31,798 nucleotides of DNA from the NCBI GenBank assembly GCA_044235265.1, contig JBIIHZ010000001.1, positions 1 through 31,798 on the forward strand, in the 5' to 3' direction. This DNA comes from Candidatus Sericytochromatia bacterium (GTDB lineage Bacteria > Cyanobacteriota > Sericytochromatia > S15B-MN24 > UBA4093). The notes beneath the pieces were generated by a model. It did not search any database, had not been told where the DNA came from, and worked only from the letters and a program-made list of their open reading frames with translations. The first letter of the stretch is position 1. Every line of letters starts with the position of its first letter. This document shows positions 14,149 through 24,341 of this stretch, one piece after another. The position numbers and the translations under genes were made by a program.

Positions 14149-15231
14149 ATGACGCAAGCGGGTCAGTTTGCCACGATCGAAGCCGACGTGGAAGTGCCCA
14201 ACTACGAGAGCACGTTCCGTGACGTCCAGCCGGGCGACATCATCAACGGATACGTCGTCTCGGTCGAACGGGACGAGGTCCTGGTCGATGTGGGGGGCAA
14301 GACGGAAGGCACCATCTCTCGCAAGGAGCTGTCGGCCATTCCGGTCCAGGATGCACGCCAGGTGGTCAAGCCTGGTGACGAACTCGAAGTGTTCGTCATC
14401 CGCATCGACGACGAAGAGGGCATCTCGCTCTCGAAGCGTCGCGTCGATCAGGCCCGCGGCTGGAAGCTCGCCATCGACGACTACGAGAACGAGCGCATCA
14501 TCGGCGCTCGCGTCACGGGTGTCGTCAAGGGCGGCGTGATCGTCGATGCCTACAAGCTCCGTGGCTTCGTCCCCGCGTCGCAGCTGCGCACCAAGGGCCA
14601 GCACGAGGAGCTCGTCGGCGAAGAGCTGCAGCTCAAGATCATCGAGGTCGATCAGCGTCGTAACAAGCTGATCCTCTCGCACCGCCAGGCGCTCCAGCAG
14701 GAGAAGGGCCTCAAGCGTGCCGAGATCCTGGCCAACCTCGAGGTCGGTCAGATCGTCACCGGCAAGGTCGTTCGCATCGCCGACTTCGGCGCATTCATCG
14801 ACCTCGGCGGCATCGATGGCCTGCTGCCCATCTCCGAAATCTCCTGGGAGCGCATCAAGAAGCCGGATGACGAGCTGGCCATCGGTGACGAGCTCACGCT
14901 CAAGGTCCTCAAGGTCGACCGCGAGGCCCACAAGATCTCGCTGTCGCTCAAGCAGCTCAAGGAAGATCCCTGGACGACCCTCAGCGGTTTCTCCGAGGGC
15001 CAGGTCATCAACGGCCGCGTGACGAAGCTCGCCAGCTTCGGCGCGTTCGTCGAGATCGTCCCCGGCGTCGAGGCCCTGCTGCCCACCGCCGAGATGTCCG
15101 AGCGTCAGGTGAAGCCTGAGGACGTCGTCACGGTCGACCAGACCGTCCGCGCCCTCATCAAGCGCTTCCGCCCCGAAGAGAAGCGGATCTCGCTGTCGCT
15201 GCGTGACCTCAACGAGGGGTCCGAGGAGTAA
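14149..15231 (+). CDS. rpsA: 30S ribosomal protein S1, short form (360 aa, about 4 S1 domains)
   Basis: Repeated S1 OB-folds (VLVDVGGKTEG, GFVPASQL, DFGAFIDLGGIDGLLPISEISW, SFGAFVEIVPGVEALL). Strongly biased codon usage. Confidence 0.93.
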   Translation: MTQAGQFATIEADVEVPNYESTFRDVQPGDIINGYVVSVERDEVLVDVGGKTEGTISRKELSAIPVQDARQVVKPGDELEVFVIRIDDEEGISLSKRRVDQARGWKLAIDDYENERIIGARVTGVVKGGVIVDAYKLRGFVPASQLRTKGQHEELVGEELQLKIIEVDQRRNKLILSHRQALQQEKGLKRAEILANLEVGQIVTGKVVRIADFGAFIDLGGIDGLLPISEISWERIKKPDDELAIGDELTLKVLKVDREAHKISLSLKQLKEDPWTTLSGFSEGQVINGRVTKLASFGAFVEIVPGVEALLPTAEMSERQVKPEDVVTVDQTVRALIKRFRPEEKRISLSLRDLNEGSEE

Positions 15232-15238
15232 GCGCCCG

Positions 15239-16639
15239 GTGGCCCGAGGCGGAATCGTCACTCAGGTCATCCCCGGAAGCCTCGCCGACCAGGCGGGGCT
15301 TCTCGCTGGGGACATCCTCCTGTCCATCAATGGTCAGGAGCTCTCGGACCTGATCGACTATCGGTACCAGATGGCCGACGATCGGCTGGAGCTCGTCTTC
15401 CAGAGGGAGGGCGAGCACCACACCCGTCAGATCGAGAAGGACATCGATGCCGATCTCGGGCTCTCCTTCCAGGACGCGGTCTTCGACCACATCCGCGTCT
15501 GTGCCAATCGCTGCAACTTCTGTTTCATCCTGCAGCAGCCCGAGGGCATGCGGGAATCCCTCTACATCATGGACGACGACTATCGCCTGTCGTTCCTGCA
15601 GGGCAACTTCGTCACGCTCACCAACCTTCCCGAGCGCGAGTGGCAGCGCATCGAGCGCCTGCGACTCTCGCCGCTCTACGTGTCAGTGCATGCGACGGAT
15701 CCCGAGCTGAGGGCGCGCATCCTCCAGCAGCCGCGCGGGCGGCTACTCTTCGAGCAACTCGATCGGATGCAGCGCTCCGGGCTCCAGTTCCATGCCCAGA
15801 TCGTCCTGATGCCGGGCATCAACGATGGCCACCAGCTCGACCGGACCGTCCGGGAGCTGACGGAACGCTATCTCCCGGACCTGCTCAGCATCAACATCGT
15901 GCCCGTTGCCCTGAACCGCTATCGTGAGATCCTGGGGTTGCCCCACATCGATGCCCCCACGCCGGAGTGGTGTCGGGATGTCATCCAGCAGATCAAGCCC
16001 TGGCAGAAGCGGCTCAAGGCCGAGTGGGACGAGGCCATCGTCCAGCTCTCGGATGAATTCTACGTGCTCGGGGAGGTACCGCTCCCGCGGGCTTCTCACT
16101 ACGGGGACTTCGAGAACGTCCAGGACGGCGTCGGCGGTGGGGCACTCCTCGGCTGGGAATGGAAAAAGCTCGCCCGCAAGCTGCCGGCGGTCCTCCCCAG
16201 TCCCGTGCGGGCACAGGTCGTCACGGGCAAGGCGGCTCGGCATCTCCTGGCTCCGCTCTTCGAGGACCTCACCCGGGTCGAGGGGTGCGACCTGCAACTC
16301 GTCGACGTGCCCAGCCGATTCTGGGGGGATCTCATCACGGTGACGGGTCTGCTCACGGGGCAGGATCTCATCGACGAACCCCGGCTGCGAGAGGGAGCCG
16401 GCGAGCTCTGGATCCCGGACATCATGCTCAAGGCCGGGACGGAGGTGTTCCTCGACGACCTCTGCGTGCGCGACGTCGAGGACGCGCTGGGACGCCCGGT
16501 CCGCATCCTGCCGACCACGGCGCAGGGCCTCTTCGACGCGGTCACGGGCACTCATCGCGCCAGTCGCGACGACACCCGGGCGCGGTTCGGTAATTACGAG
16601 CCCGATCTCGGCCTCCAGCTCCGGGCCCGACCTCGCTAG
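15239..16639 (+). CDS. PDZ + radical SAM DUF512 (TIGR03279-type) protein (466 aa)
   Basis: N-terminal PDZ (PGSLADQAGLLAGD), CANRCNFC cluster motif, DDDYRLSFLQGNFVTLTN, LYVSVHATDP and QLSDEFY. GTG at 15239 follows a GAGGAG RBS overlapping the rpsA 3' end. Confidence 0.92.
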   Translation: MARGGIVTQVIPGSLADQAGLLAGDILLSINGQELSDLIDYRYQMADDRLELVFQREGEHHTRQIEKDIDADLGLSFQDAVFDHIRVCANRCNFCFILQQPEGMRESLYIMDDDYRLSFLQGNFVTLTNLPEREWQRIERLRLSPLYVSVHATDPELRARILQQPRGRLLFEQLDRMQRSGLQFHAQIVLMPGINDGHQLDRTVRELTERYLPDLLSINIVPVALNRYREILGLPHIDAPTPEWCRDVIQQIKPWQKRLKAEWDEAIVQLSDEFYVLGEVPLPRASHYGDFENVQDGVGGGALLGWEWKKLARKLPAVLPSPVRAQVVTGKAARHLLAPLFEDLTRVEGCDLQLVDVPSRFWGDLITVTGLLTGQDLIDEPRLREGAGELWIPDIMLKAGTEVFLDDLCVRDVEDALGRPVRILPTTAQGLFDAVTGTHRASRDDTRARFGNYEPDLGLQLRARPR

Positions 16640-17649: not shown

Positions 17650-18488
17650 GCCGAGGCGTCGGTCGACCGGATCTCGACGGGACGACCGGCCAGTGCACGA
17701 TAAGGAACGACCAGCAGGCCCGTGGGCGTGCGGAGGCGCATGGTGGTCGGATCGAGATTTTCGATCCGACCACCGGAAACCTCCCCGTCCCGGGCCTGCC
17801 AGCTCAGGACGTCTCCCACCTGGCAGTTCCGTAGCCAGGTCCGGCCCTGGATCAGACTCGCCAGACTCTCTTGCAGGGCAGCCCCTGCGGCGATCGCCAG
17901 GCCGAGCCCGGCCGTCGCGAGCAGGATCGCGACGATCACCTGGAGCAGAGGTGGCACGAGCCTCAGCTGGCTCAGGCATGCCAGCCCCACCAGGGCGAGG
18001 ATGAGGCGCCGGAGCCAGGTGGTCAGTCCCGGTGGTCCCGGTATCCCCGATTCCCGCACCGTCTCCTCCACTGCCCGGGCAAGCGTCAGGCCAAGGATCA
18101 GCAGCAGGATGGCGCTCGCCGCGCCCGGCAGGTAGGTGGCCAGCGTCGTGAGGGTGCTGGCCAGACCGGAGATCCCCATCACGTCCATCGCTCCCGCGGC
18201 TGCCAGCAGGAATGTGCCCCAACGGACGAGACCGGCGAGGAGTTCCCGCGGTTCCAGGCGCATGCCGGAACGGGCGATCGCCGTCTCGATCCCGCACCGG
18301 GCCAGCCAGTCGGGTAGCCGGAGGGCCTCGAGGCCCCGGTCGGTCGCCCGGGCCACCAGCGCCGACAGGAACCAGCCCGCGACCAGCAGGAGCAGGGCTC
18401 CGGTCAGCCGGGGCAGGGCGGCTATCGTCTCGGCCATGGCACCCGTCAGGGCCATCTCGAGGGCATCTTGCCAGCTCGTTTCGGGCAT
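17541..18488 (-). CDS. MscS-related / CmpX-like membrane protein (TM_helix repeats)
   Basis: ALPRLTGALLLLVAGW, ARSGM...LAGLVRW and YLPGAASAIL motifs, C-terminal beta domain (VGDVLS...GRIENLD). ATG after GAGGAG RBS. The 3' end overlaps the convergent lipoprotein gene by 109 nt. Confidence 0.78.
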   Translation of the reverse strand: MPETSWQDALEMALTGAMAETIAALPRLTGALLLLVAGWFLSALVARATDRGLEALRLPDWLARCGIETAIARSGMRLEPRELLAGLVRWGTFLLAAAGAMDVMGISGLASTLTTLATYLPGAASAILLLILGLTLARAVEETVRESGIPGPPGLTTWLRRLILALVGLACLSQLRLVPPLLQVIVAILLATAGLGLAIAAGAALQESLASLIQGRTWLRNCQVGDVLSWQARDGEVSGGRIENLDPTTMRLRTPTGLLVVPYRALAGRPVEIRSTDASAHSTAGSAASASSSDGSDFLLSRSVTTDVARELESS

Positions 18489-18502
18489 CCGGGGGGCTCC
18501 TC

Positions 18503-18781
18503 TCAGGATCTCGGTCGAGGGGGGGGACGGTGCGTCACCCACCAGCCGAACAACCACTCGGCCAGGGCTGCGCCGGCCATGGTCGGGATCACGGCCAGCG
18601 AACCGATGACGGGGCCCCAGTGCCAGCCCAGGTGTCCCGCCCCGTACCCTCCGAGGAGGGCGCCGGGCAGCGCGGCGAGTGCCCCCCCGCCCCATCCCCC
18701 CGGCAGCCTGGCCGGGATCAGGGCCTCGCCGAACAGTCCGGCAACGGTGGCCACGATCAGCACGGTCAGCCAGCCGACCAA
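18503..18781 (-). CDS. GlsB/YeaQ/YmgE family stress-response membrane protein (92 aa)
   Basis: Small Gly-rich 3-TM protein (PGGWGGGALAALPGALLGG...WGPVIGSLAVIPTMAGA). TTG start. Confidence 0.72.
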   Translation of the reverse strand: MVGWLTVLIVATVAGLFGEALIPARLPGGWGGGALAALPGALLGGYGAGHLGWHWGPVIGSLAVIPTMAGAALAEWLFGWWVTHRPPPRPRS

Positions 18782-18812
18782 CGCCCCGTCCCTTCTTCGG
18801 TGTCCACCCTGC

Positions 18813-19859
18813 TCACCGGTGGCTCTCGAGGAGCTTGTGATAGGCCTGGAGGTAGCCGAGGGCCATGCGGCCGGCGCTGAAGCGGCTCTCGACCCACTCC
18901 CGACATTCCCGGGCGGACAGCGTGGCGGTACGAGTTACCCCCGCCACGAGACCGCGCACGTCCCGGGCGATCCAGCCGCTGATCCCGTGGGCCACGACCT
19001 CCCCCACCGCCCCTGCCGCGAGCGCTACCACGGGGGTTCCGCAGGCCATCGCCTCGAGCATCACGAGACCGAACGGCTCGGGCCAGCGTACGGGGAAGAG
19101 CACGCAGCGGGCACGGGCCAGCCACCGCCACTTGCGTGCCCCTCCGACCTCACCCAGCCACCGGATGCGACGCCCGTCGATGTGCGGGAGGACCGTCTCC
19201 CGGAACCAGGTGTCGTGAGCAGGATCGACCTGACCGATCAGCACCAGGGGCAGGGCCATGCGCCGGGCGACCTCCACCGCGAGATCGGGCCCCTTGTCCG
19301 GGCACAGGCGCCCGAGGAAGAGCAGGGGCCCGCGGCGAGGGCCGGACAGGGCCCCCGGTACCGGGATCTCGCTCAGATCGAGGCCATTCGGGACGACCTC
19401 GACGATCCGCAGCGGGGCGGCCCGCAGGGCCTGGAAGCGCGACAGGGCGACGAAGGCATGGCCGGGATGCGCCTCGTAGATCTCTCGCCTCCCCGGCGTC
19501 AGGTCGTTATGCAGCGTCGTGAGGACCGGCGCCCCGGAATTCCCGGCCAGCAGCACCCCACTCGTTTTCGTGTGGTCATGGATGACGTCGAAGTTCGACG
19601 ACTGTTCGAGGACCCAGGCGACGTGGCGTCGTTCGAGGTGCTCGTAGCCCTCGCGATCGCGGCGCGCCAGATCGGCCATCGAGCGGGGCACATAGGATCG
19701 AAGGGGCAGGGTGGTCCTGGAATCGCCCGCCGCGTAAAGCGTGACCTCGTGTCCCAGGGCCTGGAGGGCCCTTCCCAGCGTGTCCACGACCCGTTCGGTC
19801 CCACCGTATCCAGGGGGGGGGACCGGGTGCACCAGCGGGGCGAGCAGGGCGATGCGCAA
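18813..19859 (-). CDS. GT4 family glycosyltransferase (348 aa)
   Basis: TTG start after GAGGAGG gives MRIALLAPLVHPVPPPGYGGTERVV. FLGRLCPDKG and EPFGLVMLEAMACGTPVV motifs. Confidence 0.92.
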   Translation of the reverse strand: MRIALLAPLVHPVPPPGYGGTERVVDTLGRALQALGHEVTLYAAGDSRTTLPLRSYVPRSMADLARRDREGYEHLERRHVAWVLEQSSNFDVIHDHTKTSGVLLAGNSGAPVLTTLHNDLTPGRREIYEAHPGHAFVALSRFQALRAAPLRIVEVVPNGLDLSEIPVPGALSGPRRGPLLFLGRLCPDKGPDLAVEVARRMALPLVLIGQVDPAHDTWFRETVLPHIDGRRIRWLGEVGGARKWRWLARARCVLFPVRWPEPFGLVMLEAMACGTPVVALAAGAVGEVVAHGISGWIARDVRGLVAGVTRTATLSARECREWVESRFSAGRMALGYLQAYHKLLESHR

Positions 19860-20031
19860 ACGGGCCTCCTCCCGCCCCGGTGCCGGGCTGCGCCGTGGCG
19901 GCACGGAGCCATTGCGGCGACCGCGACCCTCATCCTGGCTCCCGTGGGGCCTGCGAGACGAGCGCAACCTGGACCGGATGTTTCGTCCGTGGTCGATGAC
20001 GGGTCCGTGCCTTGTGACCGGGGCGAGGGGG

Positions 20032-20040
20032 TGCTAGGGT
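20032..20040 (+). promoter_or_regulatory. Putative extended -10 (TGcTAGGGT) upstream of the GT20 gene
   Basis: TGnTAnnnT match 40 nt upstream of the TTG start. Confidence 0.3.
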
Positions 20041-20080
20041 CCAGCGGGCTCCATCCAGAGGGGCCGGATCGGGGGGCTGC

Positions 20081-21676
20081 TTGCATCGCATCACCCGCGA
20101 ATGCCGGGATGCCGTCAGGAGGCTCTGGCGCCAGGAACTCGCCGACACGCACCTGGTGATCGTCTCCAACCGGGGTCCTCTCGAGCGCACCGAGGGGAGC
20201 GCCGGCTCGAGGCGAGGCCAGGGCGGACTGGTGACCGCCCTGGCTTCCCTGACGAGTCTCGTGCCTGTGACATGGGTGTCCTCACGGCTGGGGCTCGAGC
20301 CCGGGGTCGAGGAGGCCCGGGGGAGGCTGTCCGATTTTCCTGCGAGGCTCGTGAGCGTCCCGATCGAGGGCGAGCGCTTCTCGGCCTACTATGACGGGTT
20401 CTCGAACTCCTTGCTCTGGTTTCTCCAGCATGGACTCACCCACGCCCCCGTGCATCCGGACTTCGATCCCGCGACGTGGCAGGCCTGGGAGGCTTACCGG
20501 GAGGTCAATCTGGCCTTCGCCCGTGCGATCGCTGCGCTGTTGCGGCAGGACGGCCGCCAGCCCGTGGTGTGGATCCACGACTATCACCTGTACCTGCTGC
20601 CCGGACTGTTGCGGGAACTGGTTCCCGAGGCCGTCTTGCTCCACTTCACCCATGTAGCCTGGCCCTCGGTGGACGCGTGGCGCATGCTCCCGGATGCCGT
20701 GCGACGTGCCCTTCTCGGCGGTTTGCTCGCGAGCGACATCGTGGGATTTCACGTCCCGCGCTTCGCCGAACAGTTCCGGCAGGCCGCCCGGGAACTCGCA
20801 GGTGCCATCGGCCACCCGGGCTCTCCGGAACTCGTCTGGGCGGGGCGGCCCGTTCATGTCCGGGCGTATCCGATCTCGGTGGATCCCGAGGCCCTCTGCC
20901 GGGAGGCCCGTGGCCCGGCCGTCCGGCGCCTCGAATCCGAACTCGTCCAGCAGGGGCTCGGGACCGGCTACAACGTCGTCCAGGTGGCCCGGGTGGATCC
21001 GAGCAAGAATCTGCTCCGCTCCCTGAGAGCCCTGGAACTCTGGTTCGAATCCGTTCCCCCGCGGGCCGGGGAGGTAAGGTTCTGGGGAGTCATGCCGGCA
21101 TGCCGGCTCGGGGCGAGTCTCTACCGGGACCACCTGGCCCAGGTGCAGGAACTCGCGTCTCGCATCAATCGCCGTTTTCCGGGCAATCCCGTGCGCCTGT
21201 CCCATGTTCACAGCCCGGAACGCGCCCTGGCCTGCCTCCGGCACTACGATCTGCTGCTCGTGAATTCTCTGGCGGACGGCATGAATCTCGTCGCCAAGGA
21301 GGGACCGCTCGTCAACCGTCGCGACGGCGTGCTGCTGCTGTCGGAGGCGGCCGGTGCCTTCCATGAACTGGTTCCTGGCGCCTTGCCCGTTCACCCCTTC
21401 GACCTCGTCGGGATGGTGTCCCGGATGGAGCAGGCCTTCCGGATGTCCCGCCGGGAGAGGAGGGCGCGTCAGGCCTGGCTGCGCGCGCGGATCCGGGCTA
21501 ACCCCGTCCAGCGCTGGGTCGCCTCCCATCTGGCAGACGTGGCCGAGGTCATGCGTAGCCGCGCCTCGAACAAGGCGTCCTGGTTCCCGCAGGAGGGTTC
21601 TCGTGATGGATCGAACGGTGTGGCCGCAAGCACTCGAGCGGGCAGGTCTCGCGGGGTGGGTCCCGAATTCCCGTGA
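20081..21676 (+). CDS. GT20 family sugar-phosphate synthase (trehalose-6-P synthase OtsA / glucosylglycerol-P synthase-like)
   Basis: IVSNRGP, GGLVTAL, YYDGFSNSLLWFLQH, WIHDYHL, YPISVD, RVDPSKN and DGMNLVAKE. Product is not assignable from sequence alone. Confidence 0.88.
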   Translation: MHRITRECRDAVRRLWRQELADTHLVIVSNRGPLERTEGSAGSRRGQGGLVTALASLTSLVPVTWVSSRLGLEPGVEEARGRLSDFPARLVSVPIEGERFSAYYDGFSNSLLWFLQHGLTHAPVHPDFDPATWQAWEAYREVNLAFARAIAALLRQDGRQPVVWIHDYHLYLLPGLLRELVPEAVLLHFTHVAWPSVDAWRMLPDAVRRALLGGLLASDIVGFHVPRFAEQFRQAARELAGAIGHPGSPELVWAGRPVHVRAYPISVDPEALCREARGPAVRRLESELVQQGLGTGYNVVQVARVDPSKNLLRSLRALELWFESVPPRAGEVRFWGVMPACRLGASLYRDHLAQVQELASRINRRFPGNPVRLSHVHSPERALACLRHYDLLLVNSLADGMNLVAKEGPLVNRRDGVLLLSEAAGAFHELVPGALPVHPFDLVGMVSRMEQAFRMSRRERRARQAWLRARIRANPVQRWVASHLADVAEVMRSRASNKASWFPQEGSRDGSNGVAASTRAGRSRGVGPEFP

Positions 21677-22403
21677 CGCCAATCTGCGTGCGGTGCGCCA
21701 GATGCTCGAGGGGGTGTCGTTCTACACGTTCGGCATCGGTCTCGTGCACCGGGCCCTGGCGCTGGGGATGCTCGACGAGGAGGGGGTCGTGGCCCTGATG
21801 GCCGAGTCGTGCGGCCTCGAGGGGGCGGAAGCCTTCCGGGAACGGGACGGCTTCATCGCCCCGGAACGGACCGTGGCCGGGATCTGGGCCGCAGCCGCCC
21901 TGATCGAGCGCGTCCTGAGAGCCCGCCCGGGAGCCCGGATGGCTTTCGGGACCGGGCATCCCGGGGCCCTACTGACGTGCTATCAGCGGCTGGCCGCTCA
22001 TCTCGCCGCCCTGGGGGGATGTCCGGTGGCCGGGCCCGTGGGGGCGACGGTGGGAGTCGACTGGGTGCTCGACATGCTGGGAGACGTGGCGGTCACGAGT
22101 GACACCTGCGGCATCCTGCATGGCCACGGTACCCGGGCGATGGAAGCCCTCCTTTCCGCCCGGACGGGGACTGTCGATCTCGTGATCGCCGACCACGGTC
22201 ACGCCGGGGCGGCGATCAATGCCGGTCTCCCGACCATCGCGCTGATGGACACCAACGATCCCGCACTGGCCGTCGCCGCCCGTCTCGGGGCGCGCGATCT
22301 GGTCGTCATCCCTTGCTTCGACAATCGCCCGAATGCCGTCTCGGTTCTCGTGGCCGACCTGATCCACCAGGCCGTGGCGCACCGCCTCGGCGTGCTAACA
22401 TGA
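21606..22403 (+). CDS. Putative non-HAD phosphatase (resembles the Pfam 'Phosphatase' family, PF15698 as I recall) (265 aa)
   Basis: Motifs FGTGHPGALL, LHGH, DLVIADHGHAGAA, DTNDPAL and PCFDN. ATG after GGAGG, overlapping the GT20 3' end by 71 nt. Family assignment is from memory. Confidence 0.7.
   Translation: MDRTVWPQALERAGLAGWVPNSRDANLRAVRQMLEGVSFYTFGIGLVHRALALGMLDEEGVVALMAESCGLEGAEAFRERDGFIAPERTVAGIWAAAALIERVLRARPGARMAFGTGHPGALLTCYQRLAAHLAALGGCPVAGPVGATVGVDWVLDMLGDVAVTSDTCGILHGHGTRAMEALLSARTGTVDLVIADHGHAGAAINAGLPTIALMDTNDPALAVAARLGARDLVVIPCFDNRPNAVSVLVADLIHQAVAHRLGVLT
22393..22401 (+). promoter_or_regulatory. Extended -10 promoter for tRNA-Val (TGcTAACAT)
   Basis: TGnTAnnnT ending 8 nt before the tRNA 5' end. 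Confidence 0.55.
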
Positions 22404-22409
22404 CGGCAC

Positions 22410-22482
22410 GGGCGGTTAGCTCAGCTGGTAGAGCGCCTCGTTTACACCGAGGATGTCGCGGGTTCGAGTCCCTCACCGCCCA
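22410..22482 (+). tRNA. tRNA-Val (anticodon TAC), CCA not encoded
   Basis: Cloverleaf: acceptor GGGCGGT/ACCGCCC, D-stem GCTC/GAGC, anticodon stem CCTCG/CGAGG with loop TTTACAC, T-loop TTCGAGT, discriminator A. Confidence 0.97.
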
Positions 22483-22544
22483 CTTCCTTTTCCCGGATGA
22501 TCGATGGGGCTTCCATCCACCGGTGTTCATCCAGGAGGGCAGAC

Positions 22545-24341
22545 GTGCCGTCACCGACCTTCCAGACCCTGGAAGCCCGCCTCGAACACCTCAGGGCACG
22601 GGATCCGGGTCCTGAACTCGCCCGGGCCCTGGTCGAACTGGCCTGGGAAACCGCCATCGAACCGCGATCGGATGCACTCGTGCGCGAAGCCCTCGCGCTG
22701 GTGAGCCAGTTCGATTGCCTGGACGTCGAGGCCCACGCGCACGGTGTGCTGGCCTTCCGGGCCCGGATGCGAGGGGCCTGGCACGACTGTCTGGACCACG
22801 CAGAAGCCGCCCGGATCCGCTTCGAGGTGCTCGACGATCCGACGGGTCTCTCCCGGACCTACGAGATCCTGGTGAGCGTCCACGACCAGTTCGAGGACCA
22901 TGCCCGGGCCCTCGAGTATGCGCATCTCGCCCTGAAAATGGCGAGACGATCCGGGGAGCGTCGCGCCGAGGCCTGGGCCATCCATGCGATCGCCTATGTT
23001 CAGGGCGTCGTCGGCGATCCGGAAGCGGCGATCGCCGGGGTGGAGGAAGCCTGGCCCCACTTCGAGGCACTCGGGATCCTGAACGGTCTCGCGCGCTGTG
23101 CGATCACCCGAGGCTTTGCCCTGCTCGACCTGGGGCGCCTCACCGAGGCACGTGACAGTTTCCTCCGAGCCCGGCAACAATGGGCCGCCGTGGGGTCGAT
23201 GCGTGGGGTGGCCGGTGTGAGCCGCACCCTGGCCGAGTTGAGTCTCCTCGAGGTCGACGGGCCAGCCGACCTCGAGGCGGCGCTGGCCCACGCCACGGAG
23301 TGTGTCGAAACCGCACGCACGCACGGGGTGGCCGACATGCTCGTCCAGGGGTTGCTCATCCAGGCACGATGCCACCTGGCGCGGCGCGAGGCGGCGGCAG
23401 CTCGGGAGGTCTCCGGAGAAGCCCTGAGGCTCGCCCGGCAGGCCATCTCGCCATCCTCCGAACTCGAGGCCCTGGAACTCCAGGCTCGTGCCGCGGCCGA
23501 GCTCGGGGATCAGGAGCGGGCCTACCACCATTTCCTCGAGCGTCTGGACCGTGACCGGGCCTGGCAAGCCGACCTGAAAGTCATCCGGCGACGGGACCTG
23601 GAGATGGGGGTGAAAGCGGCGGAGGCCGTGGCGACGGACCGGATCTTGCATACCGTTCTGCCTGCCCCGGTCGTGCAAGAGCTCAAGCTGCACGGGGCGG
23701 TTCGTCCCCGTCGGGTCGAGGCGGCCACCGTGCTGTTCACGGATCTCGTCGGCTTCACGGCCGTGGCCAGTCGGATGCCGCCCGAGGTCCTCGTCGAGGA
23801 ACTGGAACGCCTGTTCGGTGCGTTTGACGCGGTGGTTCGCCAGACCGGCCTCGAGCGGCTGAAGACCATCGGCGATGCCTACATGGCCGTCGCGGGCGTG
23901 CCCGTATTCGATCCGGCCCACGTTTTCCGGGCCGTGGTGGCGGCCCTCGGATTCCGCGAGGCGGTCGTCCGGCTCGCCGCGGACGCGGCCCATCGGGAGG
24001 GGGGAGCCGTCTGGCAGCTCCGGATAGGTCTGCACTCGGGCCCGCTCGTGGCGGGCATGATTGGTCGCGAGCGGACGGCCTTCGATGTCTGGGGCGATAC
24101 CGTCAACATCGCCTCGCGCATGGAGTCGAACGGCCAGCCGGGGCGGGTCAACGTGTCCGAGACCGTGTTCCGGGTCATCGAACCGTACTTTCTCTGCGAG
24201 GATCGGGGAAAATTGCCGGTCAAGAACCGGGGAGACCTGGGCATGGCTTTCGTCGATCGGCTGCGTCCGGAGTGGTCGGATGACGATGCAGGAGTCGTGC
24301 CGAACGAGGCATTCTGGAAGGCTGTGCGCGGCGAGGCCTGA
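22545..24341 (+). CDS. Soluble class III adenylate cyclase with N-terminal TPR-like helical region (598 aa)
   Basis: TVLFTDLVGFT, LKTIGDAYMAV, LRIGLHSG and FDVWGDTVNIASRMES. Lys/Asp specificity residues indicate ATP. GTG after GGAGGG RBS. Confidence 0.92.
   Translation: MPSPTFQTLEARLEHLRARDPGPELARALVELAWETAIEPRSDALVREALALVSQFDCLDVEAHAHGVLAFRARMRGAWHDCLDHAEAARIRFEVLDDPTGLSRTYEILVSVHDQFEDHARALEYAHLALKMARRSGERRAEAWAIHAIAYVQGVVGDPEAAIAGVEEAWPHFEALGILNGLARCAITRGFALLDLGRLTEARDSFLRARQQWAAVGSMRGVAGVSRTLAELSLLEVDGPADLEAALAHATECVETARTHGVADMLVQGLLIQARCHLARREAAAAREVSGEALRLARQAISPSSELEALELQARAAAELGDQERAYHHFLERLDRDRAWQADLKVIRRRDLEMGVKAAEAVATDRILHTVLPAPVVQELKLHGAVRPRRVEAATVLFTDLVGFTAVASRMPPEVLVEELERLFGAFDAVVRQTGLERLKTIGDAYMAVAGVPVFDPAHVFRAVVAALGFREAVVRLAADAAHREGGAVWQLRIGLHSGPLVAGMIGRERTAFDVWGDTVNIASRMESNGQPGRVNVSETVFRVIEPYFLCEDRGKLPVKNRGDLGMAFVDRLRPEWSDDDAGVVPNEAFWKAVRGEA

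Follow-up and report, generated by a model that had tools for sequence, protein, structure and literature searches.

A PF15698 protein as a candidate replacement for OtsB beside an OtsA-like synthase in the Sericytochromatia

Background

Which enzyme removes the phosphate group made by a trehalose-6-phosphate (T6P) synthase when no gene for the usual phosphatase can be found? The question is raised by a stretch of 31,798 nucleotides (the window; GC about 68%) from a metagenome-assembled genome (MAG) of Candidatus Sericytochromatia bacterium (GCA_044235265.1, contig JBIIHZ010000001.1, positions 1 to 31,798), in which a GT20 gene is followed by a gene for a 265-aa protein of the small family PF15698. 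To our knowledge, every characterised T6P phosphatase is a haloacid dehalogenase (HAD) enzyme. The build-up of T6P is toxic (PMC5148154). The named relatives of the MAG are 'Candidatus Sericytochromatia' and 'Tanganyikabacteria' MAGs, members of the non-photosynthetic sister lineage of the cyanobacteria.

An initial annotation of the window had suggested that the PF15698 protein supplies the dephosphorylation step, possibly for a non-standard compatible solute. The first suggestion is, on gene context, the best-supported reading of the locus, and the second is not supported for the GT20 enzyme, which keeps 10 of the 11 substrate-binding residues of OtsA and lies within the OtsA radiation. We propose, with rather more confidence than doubt, that the PF15698 protein dephosphorylates sugar phosphates with the help of a metal and that, in a single event in this lineage, it took the place of OtsB, on the basis of gene context and of the complementary distribution of PF15698 and the HAD phosphatase.

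A conserved gene pair in the place of otsB

The pair consists of the following features, with the evidence for each in brackets.

20081 to 21676, + strand: GT20, OtsA-like, probable trehalose-6-phosphate synthase (PF00982, TIGR02400, PDB 5lqd, tree)
21591 to 21596, + strand: Shine-Dalgarno sequence AGGAGG of the PF15698 gene, within the 3' tail of GT20 (direct sequence reading)
21606 to 22403, + strand: PF15698 'Phosphatase' protein, 265 aa, putative sugar-phosphate phosphatase (Pfam, invariant His/Asp, model)

The overlap of the two genes, first noticed in the initial annotation, is confirmed: the frames share 71 nt, the downstream gene has its own AGGAGG at a spacing of 9 nt from its ATG (21606), and its codon-position GC is coding-like (GC at third codon positions, GC3, 0.82). 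To assess how general this arrangement is, we searched the MAG itself and 40 relatives with profiles, a set that divides into 28 genomes of the window's order plus family f5 and 13 genomes of the sister families f6 and f7, and judged adjacency by coordinates and tblastn. Among the 28 clade genomes, GT20 is present in 27 and PF15698 in 26, and in 24 of the genomes with PF15698 (24 of 28 overall) the gene directly precedes PF15698 and shares its strand with GT20 as that gene, so the linkage, which the initial annotation had proposed to count, is conserved. The two non-adjacent cases are G021, in which the pair is split by contig ends, and G010, in which the genes are unlinked. The linked pairs span four families of the order as well as family f5, with gaps between the genes of -71 to +128 nt and with identities down to 35% for GT20 and 39% for PF15698.

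The same searches extend the absence of otsB, originally stated for the window, to the clade as a whole: the HAD trehalose phosphatase family PF02358 has no match in the MAG (82% complete, 2.3 Mb) or in any of the 27 relatives, and no canonical otsB was found elsewhere in the 28 genomes. StpA-type PF09506 likewise had no match in the MAG, and the control search with the same model was also empty, so that this result is weak evidence. The sister families of the same class have the classical fused form of the pathway, with GT20 (480 to 505 bits) joined to PF02358 in one frame of 728 to 785 aa in 7 of 13 genomes, and PF15698 occurs in none of the 13. Across the phylum, sampled with 201 genomes, PF15698 is restricted to this clade (0 of 174 genomes elsewhere). 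A takeover of the role of OtsB by PF15698 would be expected to leave such a distribution. Phylogenetic reconstruction unites the GT20-linked PF15698 copies in one clade (SH-aLRT 89), which lies nested among sequences from Chloroflexia and Armatimonadota. Because the linked copies form one clade, the linkage arose once, through a single recruitment, and the nesting suggests that PF15698 was acquired by transfer.

Some long reading frames at these loci could be taken for fusions of the two genes. The 805-aa open frame in G025 is an alternative-frame artefact of high GC, as are the GT20 frames that remain open across PF15698 in loci L016, L017 and L020. GT20 and PF15698 are read in different frames there.

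The PF15698 protein and its probable relationship to uS2

The partner had been described as a non-HAD protein with His/Asp-rich motifs, and both parts of that description stand. A Pfam scan of 21606 to 22403 identifies a full-length member of PF15698 (129.4 bits, cut-off 28.4) and returns no other family even at E values up to 10, neither HAD nor PF02358, and we found no NCBIfam match and no DxDxT motif after a strand in the sequence. The motifs GTGHP, HGH, DHG, DTNDP and FDN are all present, and their cores are invariant or nearly so among 34 family members (T116, G117, H118, P119, H174, D196, H197, G198, D215, D218, P219, P236 and D239). Searches of the PDB for proteins related to PF15698 by sequence were empty with phmmer and with a profile, the ESM Atlas returned only PF15698 clusters, and the family is small, accounting for some 500 clusters in a set of 1.8 billion representatives.

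AlphaFold2 models the protein with confidence (pLDDT 96.7) as a three-layer alpha/beta fold in which the parallel strands carry the invariant residues at their C-terminal ends. In a structure search the top match is ribosomal protein uS2 (Z 13.5, 171 residues at 2.8 Å; VIA-align), the next are SIS domains (GmhA with Z 10.2; RpiR, GlmS and MurQ with Z 8-9), and DHH phosphoesterases (RecJ, NrnA) are matched with Z 8.0-8.7, the DHH domain of RecJ at 8.7, and 22-23% identity. Profile comparison with hhalign aligns PF15698 with Escherichia coli uS2 at E 4e-4 and with a 28-sequence uS2 profile at E 7e-4, in both cases within a probability of only 26-34%, and the alignment with the uS2 profile is collinear over the whole length. 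Residues 166-211 of E. coli uS2 and 193-243 of PF15698 show 49% identity over 43 columns, along the pattern ADHxH...IP...DTN-DP...IPxND(D/N). The Zn2+ ligands of uS2 are D188, D204 and D205 (PMC4288201), and they align with D215 and D239, which are invariant in PF15698, and with N240, which is nearly so. In addition, two of the 34 family members give weak matches to the uS2 family PF00318 (best E 0.26). From these alignments and the model, PF15698 is a probable remote homologue of uS2.

The window protein is not the ribosomal protein itself, since the genome has its own rpsB (282 bits), and the two differ. The coiled-coil hairpin of uS2 corresponds to a beta-hairpin carrying the HGH motif in PF15698, the invariant His118, His174 and His197 are specific to PF15698, and the invariant D196 and D218 are added, all five near the aligned Zn2+-ligand positions in sequence. 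These extra invariant His and Asp residues suggest an enlarged, possibly two-metal site. On the model, the features fit a metal-dependent sugar-phosphate hydrolase without proving it. Homology to DHH or SIS proteins gained no support from hhalign, which is not significant for either E. coli RecJ (1.2% probability, and no PF01368 match) or E. coli GmhA (1% probability, and no SIS match in Pfam). In the latter alignment, the TGHPG loop of PF15698 aligns with the GNGGS loop of GmhA.

Phosphatase or isomerase

A number of observations weigh against a phosphatase role. The family is unstudied rather than unnamed: its name in Pfam and NCBI is 'phosphatase', a name that is a label only, its InterPro entry is named after Streptomyces SCO2771, and we found no literature on the family, on SCO2771 or on any T6P phosphatase outside the HAD class, and no biochemical data for any member. 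The closest folds are uS2, which is not an enzyme, and SIS isomerases, and the profiles of RecJ/DHH and GmhA are non-significant. No fusion protein of GT20 and PF15698 was found, nor were any long homologues. A Cof-type HAD enzyme (PF08282), which could dephosphorylate T6P, is encoded in all five genomes of the order that were checked. Two genomes, G023 and G010 (95% completeness), have the GT4-GT20 arrangement described below with neither a linked PF15698 nor PF02358. Outside the clade, some 70 PF15698 loci (Streptomyces, Rubrobacter, Chloroflexi, Armatimonadota) are without a GT20 within 5 kb, and among five PF15698-bearing genomes checked there, PF02358 coexists in three and GT20 is missing from three. 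Because PF15698 is unlinked to GT20 and coexists with PF02358 elsewhere, the family overall is no dedicated T6P phosphatase. The window protein belongs to a distinct GT20-linked subfamily, found only in this sister lineage of the cyanobacteria.

The two exceptions differ from each other. In G023, PF15698 is found neither in the genome nor downstream of GT20, and the stretch of about 800 nt downstream of GT20 in which it would be expected (locus L109, contig C201, 4005 to 4810) is without a recognisable gene, so that the gene may have been lost or may have decayed in place. We considered whether G023 is a natural swap to a HAD gene, and rejected this, as the same 800 nt hold no recognisable family. 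In G010, the only PF15698 copy belongs to another subfamily and stands beside a PfkB kinase, not linked to GT20. A PfkB sugar kinase also abuts PF15698 in a Chloroflexi MAG (the two loci are L036, 3894 to 6065, and L112, 1391 to 3147), and these two PfkB-adjacent copies group together in the tree. We count the presence of PF15698 beside sugar-phosphate genes elsewhere as support for a sugar-phosphate role. The family is otherwise mostly actinobacterial, unlinked to GT20 and common in Streptomyces (about 70 loci). In S. venezuelae (L043, 4263 to 5765) it follows a TetR gene without a gap and is divergent from methylcrotonyl-CoA carboxylase genes, a neighbourhood that proved uninformative as a clue to function.

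The alternative that survives best is that PF15698 acts on a sugar phosphate in another way, as an isomerase or epimerase that depends on a metal, or as a subunit that binds or regulates and so supplies or senses the acceptor or product of GT20, and that a generic HAD enzyme dephosphorylates T6P. The best enzyme folds after uS2 are indeed SIS isomerases, one of which, GmhA, is a Zn enzyme; the Cof-type HAD is at hand in all five genomes checked; G010 and G023 keep GT20 without a linked PF15698; and a PfkB neighbour fits a kinase-isomerase catabolic pair as well as a kinase-phosphatase pair. However, T6P has no free anomeric carbon on which an isomerase might act, the glucose-6-phosphate (G6P) site of GT20 is orthodox, and the profile comparison with GmhA gave a probability of 1%. 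Moreover, the exact complementarity of PF15698 with the fused trehalose-6-phosphate phosphatase (TPP) within one class is predicted by phosphatase displacement alone. We therefore regard an isomerase or accessory role as unlikely and retain the phosphatase.

The synthase and its product

If PF15698 is a phosphatase, its substrate depends on what GT20 makes. GT20 matches PF00982 with 286 bits (cut-off 32.5) over residues 25-487, covering positions 3-471 of the 473 in the profile, and its conserved core runs from 20153 to 21541, with the last 45 or so codons forming a non-conserved tail that overlaps the PF15698 gene. Against the NCBIfam equivalog for OtsA (TIGR02400) it scores 288.8 bits, which is under the cut-off of 564.85, and against the GgpS model (TIGR02398) it scores lower, at 188.9 bits. 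The best PDB match is 5lqd, the OtsA of S. venezuelae (230 bits), with VldE at 155 bits. The motifs HFTHVAWP and RVDPSKN, to which the initial annotation had drawn attention, are present; they do not, as it had supposed, mark a departure from OtsA, as S. venezuelae OtsA itself has H-T-P-W and the SKN motif.

The residues of OtsA that bind G6P are Arg9, Trp40, Tyr76, Trp85 and Arg300, and those that bind the donor are Gly22, Asp130, His154, Arg262, Asp361 and Glu369 (PMC1769515). Using this list of 11 and a pairwise alignment with E. coli OtsA, we find that GT20 keeps 10 (Arg9, Tyr76, Trp85, Arg300, Gly22, Asp130, His154, Arg262, Asp361 and Glu369). The position of Trp40 is ambiguous (LWFGW in E. 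coli, TWV-- here), and the same WV motif occurs in S. venezuelae OtsA. Since both the G6P-binding and the donor-binding residues are kept, the product of GT20 should be phosphorylated.

In a tree of 145 GT20 sequences, built without GgpS and VldE, the PF15698-linked enzymes form one clade with 100% support, which adjoins OtsA-like clades from Actinomycetota/Rubrobacter and from Dehalococcoidia; S. venezuelae OtsA branches outside those clades, and E. coli OtsA is the outgroup. By this placement the GT20 of the window lies inside the Terrabacteria radiation of OtsA. The window's genus forms a long branch in the tree, and relatives of the same clade score 330-373 bits on the Pfam model; we attribute the low scores and 'variant' motifs of the window's enzyme to this long branch. 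A TreS-like gene is found in the MAG (G000, C199, 1918 to 3357) at 677.3 bits, just under the cut-off of 678.35, and in the relatives G008 and G004 at about 890 bits, and we take trehalose to be a metabolite here because of its presence. In G001, one contig carries both the TreS-like gene and the GT20 pair, some 27 kb apart. A GH37 trehalase was not found.

These data also bear on a second alternative, in which the pair makes and dephosphorylates a non-trehalose glycoside phosphate, formed with another acceptor, as a non-standard solute elongated by the neighbouring GT4 enzyme. The score of GT20 on the OtsA equivalog, 289 bits where the cut-off is 565, and the failure to find a GH37 trehalase would agree with it, as would the nature of the GT4, a homologue of an enzyme that elongates a non-reducing disaccharide but itself without the Trp that stacks on fructose. 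The retention of 10 of 11 binding residues, the preference for the OtsA model over GgpS and for the OtsA structure over VldE, the higher scores of clade relatives, which make the low score a property of the long genus branch, and the TreS-like gene all speak for OtsA, and we consider a non-trehalose product quite improbable. From its sequence, the product of GT20 is most likely T6P and not an exotic solute.

The neighbourhood of the pair

In the conserved unit, a GT4 gene stands divergently upstream of GT20, and PF15698 is followed by a tRNA gene. In the window the flanking features are as follows.

18813 to 19967, - strand: GT4 glycosyltransferase, homologue of the Thermosynechococcus glucosylsucrose synthase TeGSS (tll1591), divergent from GT20 (GC3 0.85, Pfam match, PDB match)
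19968 to 20080, no strand: divergent intergenic region between GT4 and GT20, presumed from its position to be a shared regulatory region
22410 to 22483, + strand: tRNA-Val (TAC), 6 nt past the PF15698 stop codon (ARAGORN)

A consensus scan of the intergenic region (19968 to 20080) found no sigma-70 promoter and no terminator. An open frame on the + strand at 18468 to 20159 was rejected as an upstream gene, as it has no Pfam match and the coding GC3 signal sits on the minus-strand GT4. A tRNA-Val or tRNA-Asp gene lies directly 3' of the GT20-PF15698 pair in 23 of 27 related loci (loci L003 to L037), with tRNA-Val (TAC) in families f1 and f4 and tRNA-Asp (GTC) in f3.

The GT4 protein matches the Pfam families Glycos_transf_1 and Glyco_transf_4, and aligns with the TeGSS structures 7fg9 and 8x3q at full length (231 bits; residues 36-380 against 3-342 of 7fg9). 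TeGSS adds an alpha-1,2-glucose to sucrose and is encoded beside sucrose-phosphate synthase (SPS) (PMC9909042). The GT4 keeps the catalytic Tyr18 and Arg179, the UDP-binding Lys184 and the Glu of the EPFG motif, and the Trp10 of TeGSS that stacks on fructose is replaced by Val (APLVHPV against APLWERV), which hints, on sequence, at a different acceptor, possibly trehalose. By analogy, the GT4 might glucosylate trehalose or activate the synthase, although either role is speculative. If there is a non-standard product, this enzyme, which the initial annotation had overlooked, is a more likely source of it than GT20.

Wherever the flanks of a relative's locus are long enough to tell, GT4 stands upstream of GT20 (L029, L030, L031, L035, L037, G023 and G010). 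Some relatives encode an SPS-like GT4 (about 120 bits on the SPS model, far under the cut-off) beside a strong HAD phosphatase of the sucrose-6-phosphate phosphatase (S6PP) type (G001, C30, 121496 to 123378; G004, C23, 43151 to 45575), and this may be a second disaccharide pathway. Because this SPS-like/S6PP pair is present only in some relatives (G001 and G004, and not G008, G012 or the MAG itself), the constant partner of the glucosylsucrose synthase (GSS)-like gene is GT20.

Two further genes were seen near the unit. Just past the tRNA, the window encodes a TPR protein that ends in a class III adenylate/guanylate cyclase domain (22497 to 24341, + strand), a homologue of which was seen only in the same-genus locus L014, the loci having been searched with short flanks of 1.5 kb. 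A protein with PDZ, radical-SAM-like and DUF512 regions (15203 to 16639, + strand) has homologues upstream of GT4 in the Tanganyikabacteria-type loci L037, L030 and L031.

That the two genes are neighbours by descent only and are not coupled in function, with PF15698 having landed once beside GT20 and a tRNA gene, is in our view very improbable: the linkage is of single origin, so that kin are not independent, tRNA genes are common insertion points, and PF15698 has unrelated neighbours in other phyla (TetR in Streptomyces, an MFS gene, AlaRS and others), but the order has been kept across at least five families at the low identities given above while the flanks changed over the same span (tRNA-Val or tRNA-Asp; an adenylate cyclase confined to the genus), the gaps are operon-like with a coupled Shine-Dalgarno sequence in this genus, and TPP is missing exactly where PF15698 is present.

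A possible pathway and its known counterparts

We return to the reading of PF15698 as a phosphatase that displaced OtsB. In the pathway that it implies, GT20 would join nucleoside diphosphate glucose and G6P to form T6P, as predicted from the conserved binding residues and from where it falls in the tree. The PF15698 protein, probably translated in coupling with GT20 from the Shine-Dalgarno sequence within the 3' tail of that gene, would then remove the 6-phosphate in a metal-dependent reaction, doing the job of the HAD enzyme OtsB, as gene context and the complementary distribution suggest. From alignment and model, the active site would be the cluster of invariant Asp and His residues at the C-terminal strand ends, including the Asp of the uS2 Zn2+ type, with the TGHPG loop located where SIS proteins have their phosphate-binding loop. 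More speculatively, the GSS-like GT4 could use the free disaccharide as acceptor and form glucosyl-oligosaccharides, or could activate the synthase. The fullest form of this scheme, a non-HAD T6P phosphatase on the uS2 fold and its Zn2+ pocket, recruited once and acting with GT4 to yield glucosylated trehalose oligosaccharides as stress solutes, we consider less likely than not.

The locus resembles OtsA/OtsB in having a GT20 with OtsA residues followed by a small gene in the usual place of otsB, and differs in that the partner is non-HAD, with a uS2/SIS-like fold and a His/Asp cluster in place of PF02358 and DxDxT. In the otsBA genes of E. coli, the order is reversed relative to the synthase-partner order seen here. 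It also resembles the tll1590/tll1591 locus of Thermosynechococcus (PMC9909042), where a disaccharide-phosphate synthase gene lies beside a GT4 of the GSS family with the same Tyr18, Arg179 and Lys184; the synthase there is SPS, whereas here it is GT20, Trp10 is Val and a separate putative phosphatase belongs to the cluster. In the TPSP-GT-MSC operon of Thermoproteus tenax, the glycosyltransferase activates the synthase by complex formation (PMC3634074). The likeness to our locus lies in the conserved glycosyltransferase gene beside a trehalose-phosphate synthase, but in T. tenax the synthase and a HAD TPP are fused and the glycosyltransferase is co-transcribed with them, whereas here GT4 is divergent and the candidate phosphatase is non-HAD.

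Implications

If the proposal is true, PF15698 would be a second, unrelated T6P phosphatase and a clean case of non-orthologous gene displacement, and a small orphan family would gain a function. The locus would then hold a version of the OtsA/OtsB pathway in which the phosphatase is not homologous to OtsB and has a uS2-like fold, and scoring 'no otsB' as 'no OtsAB pathway' would be wrong for this lineage. The apparent kinship with uS2 would tie an enzyme-like family to a ribosomal protein, which is unusual, and would bear on the past role of the Zn2+ pocket of uS2. Finally, with a GSS-like gene conserved beside the pair, oligosaccharides built on trehalose may be expected in these relatives of the cyanobacteria.

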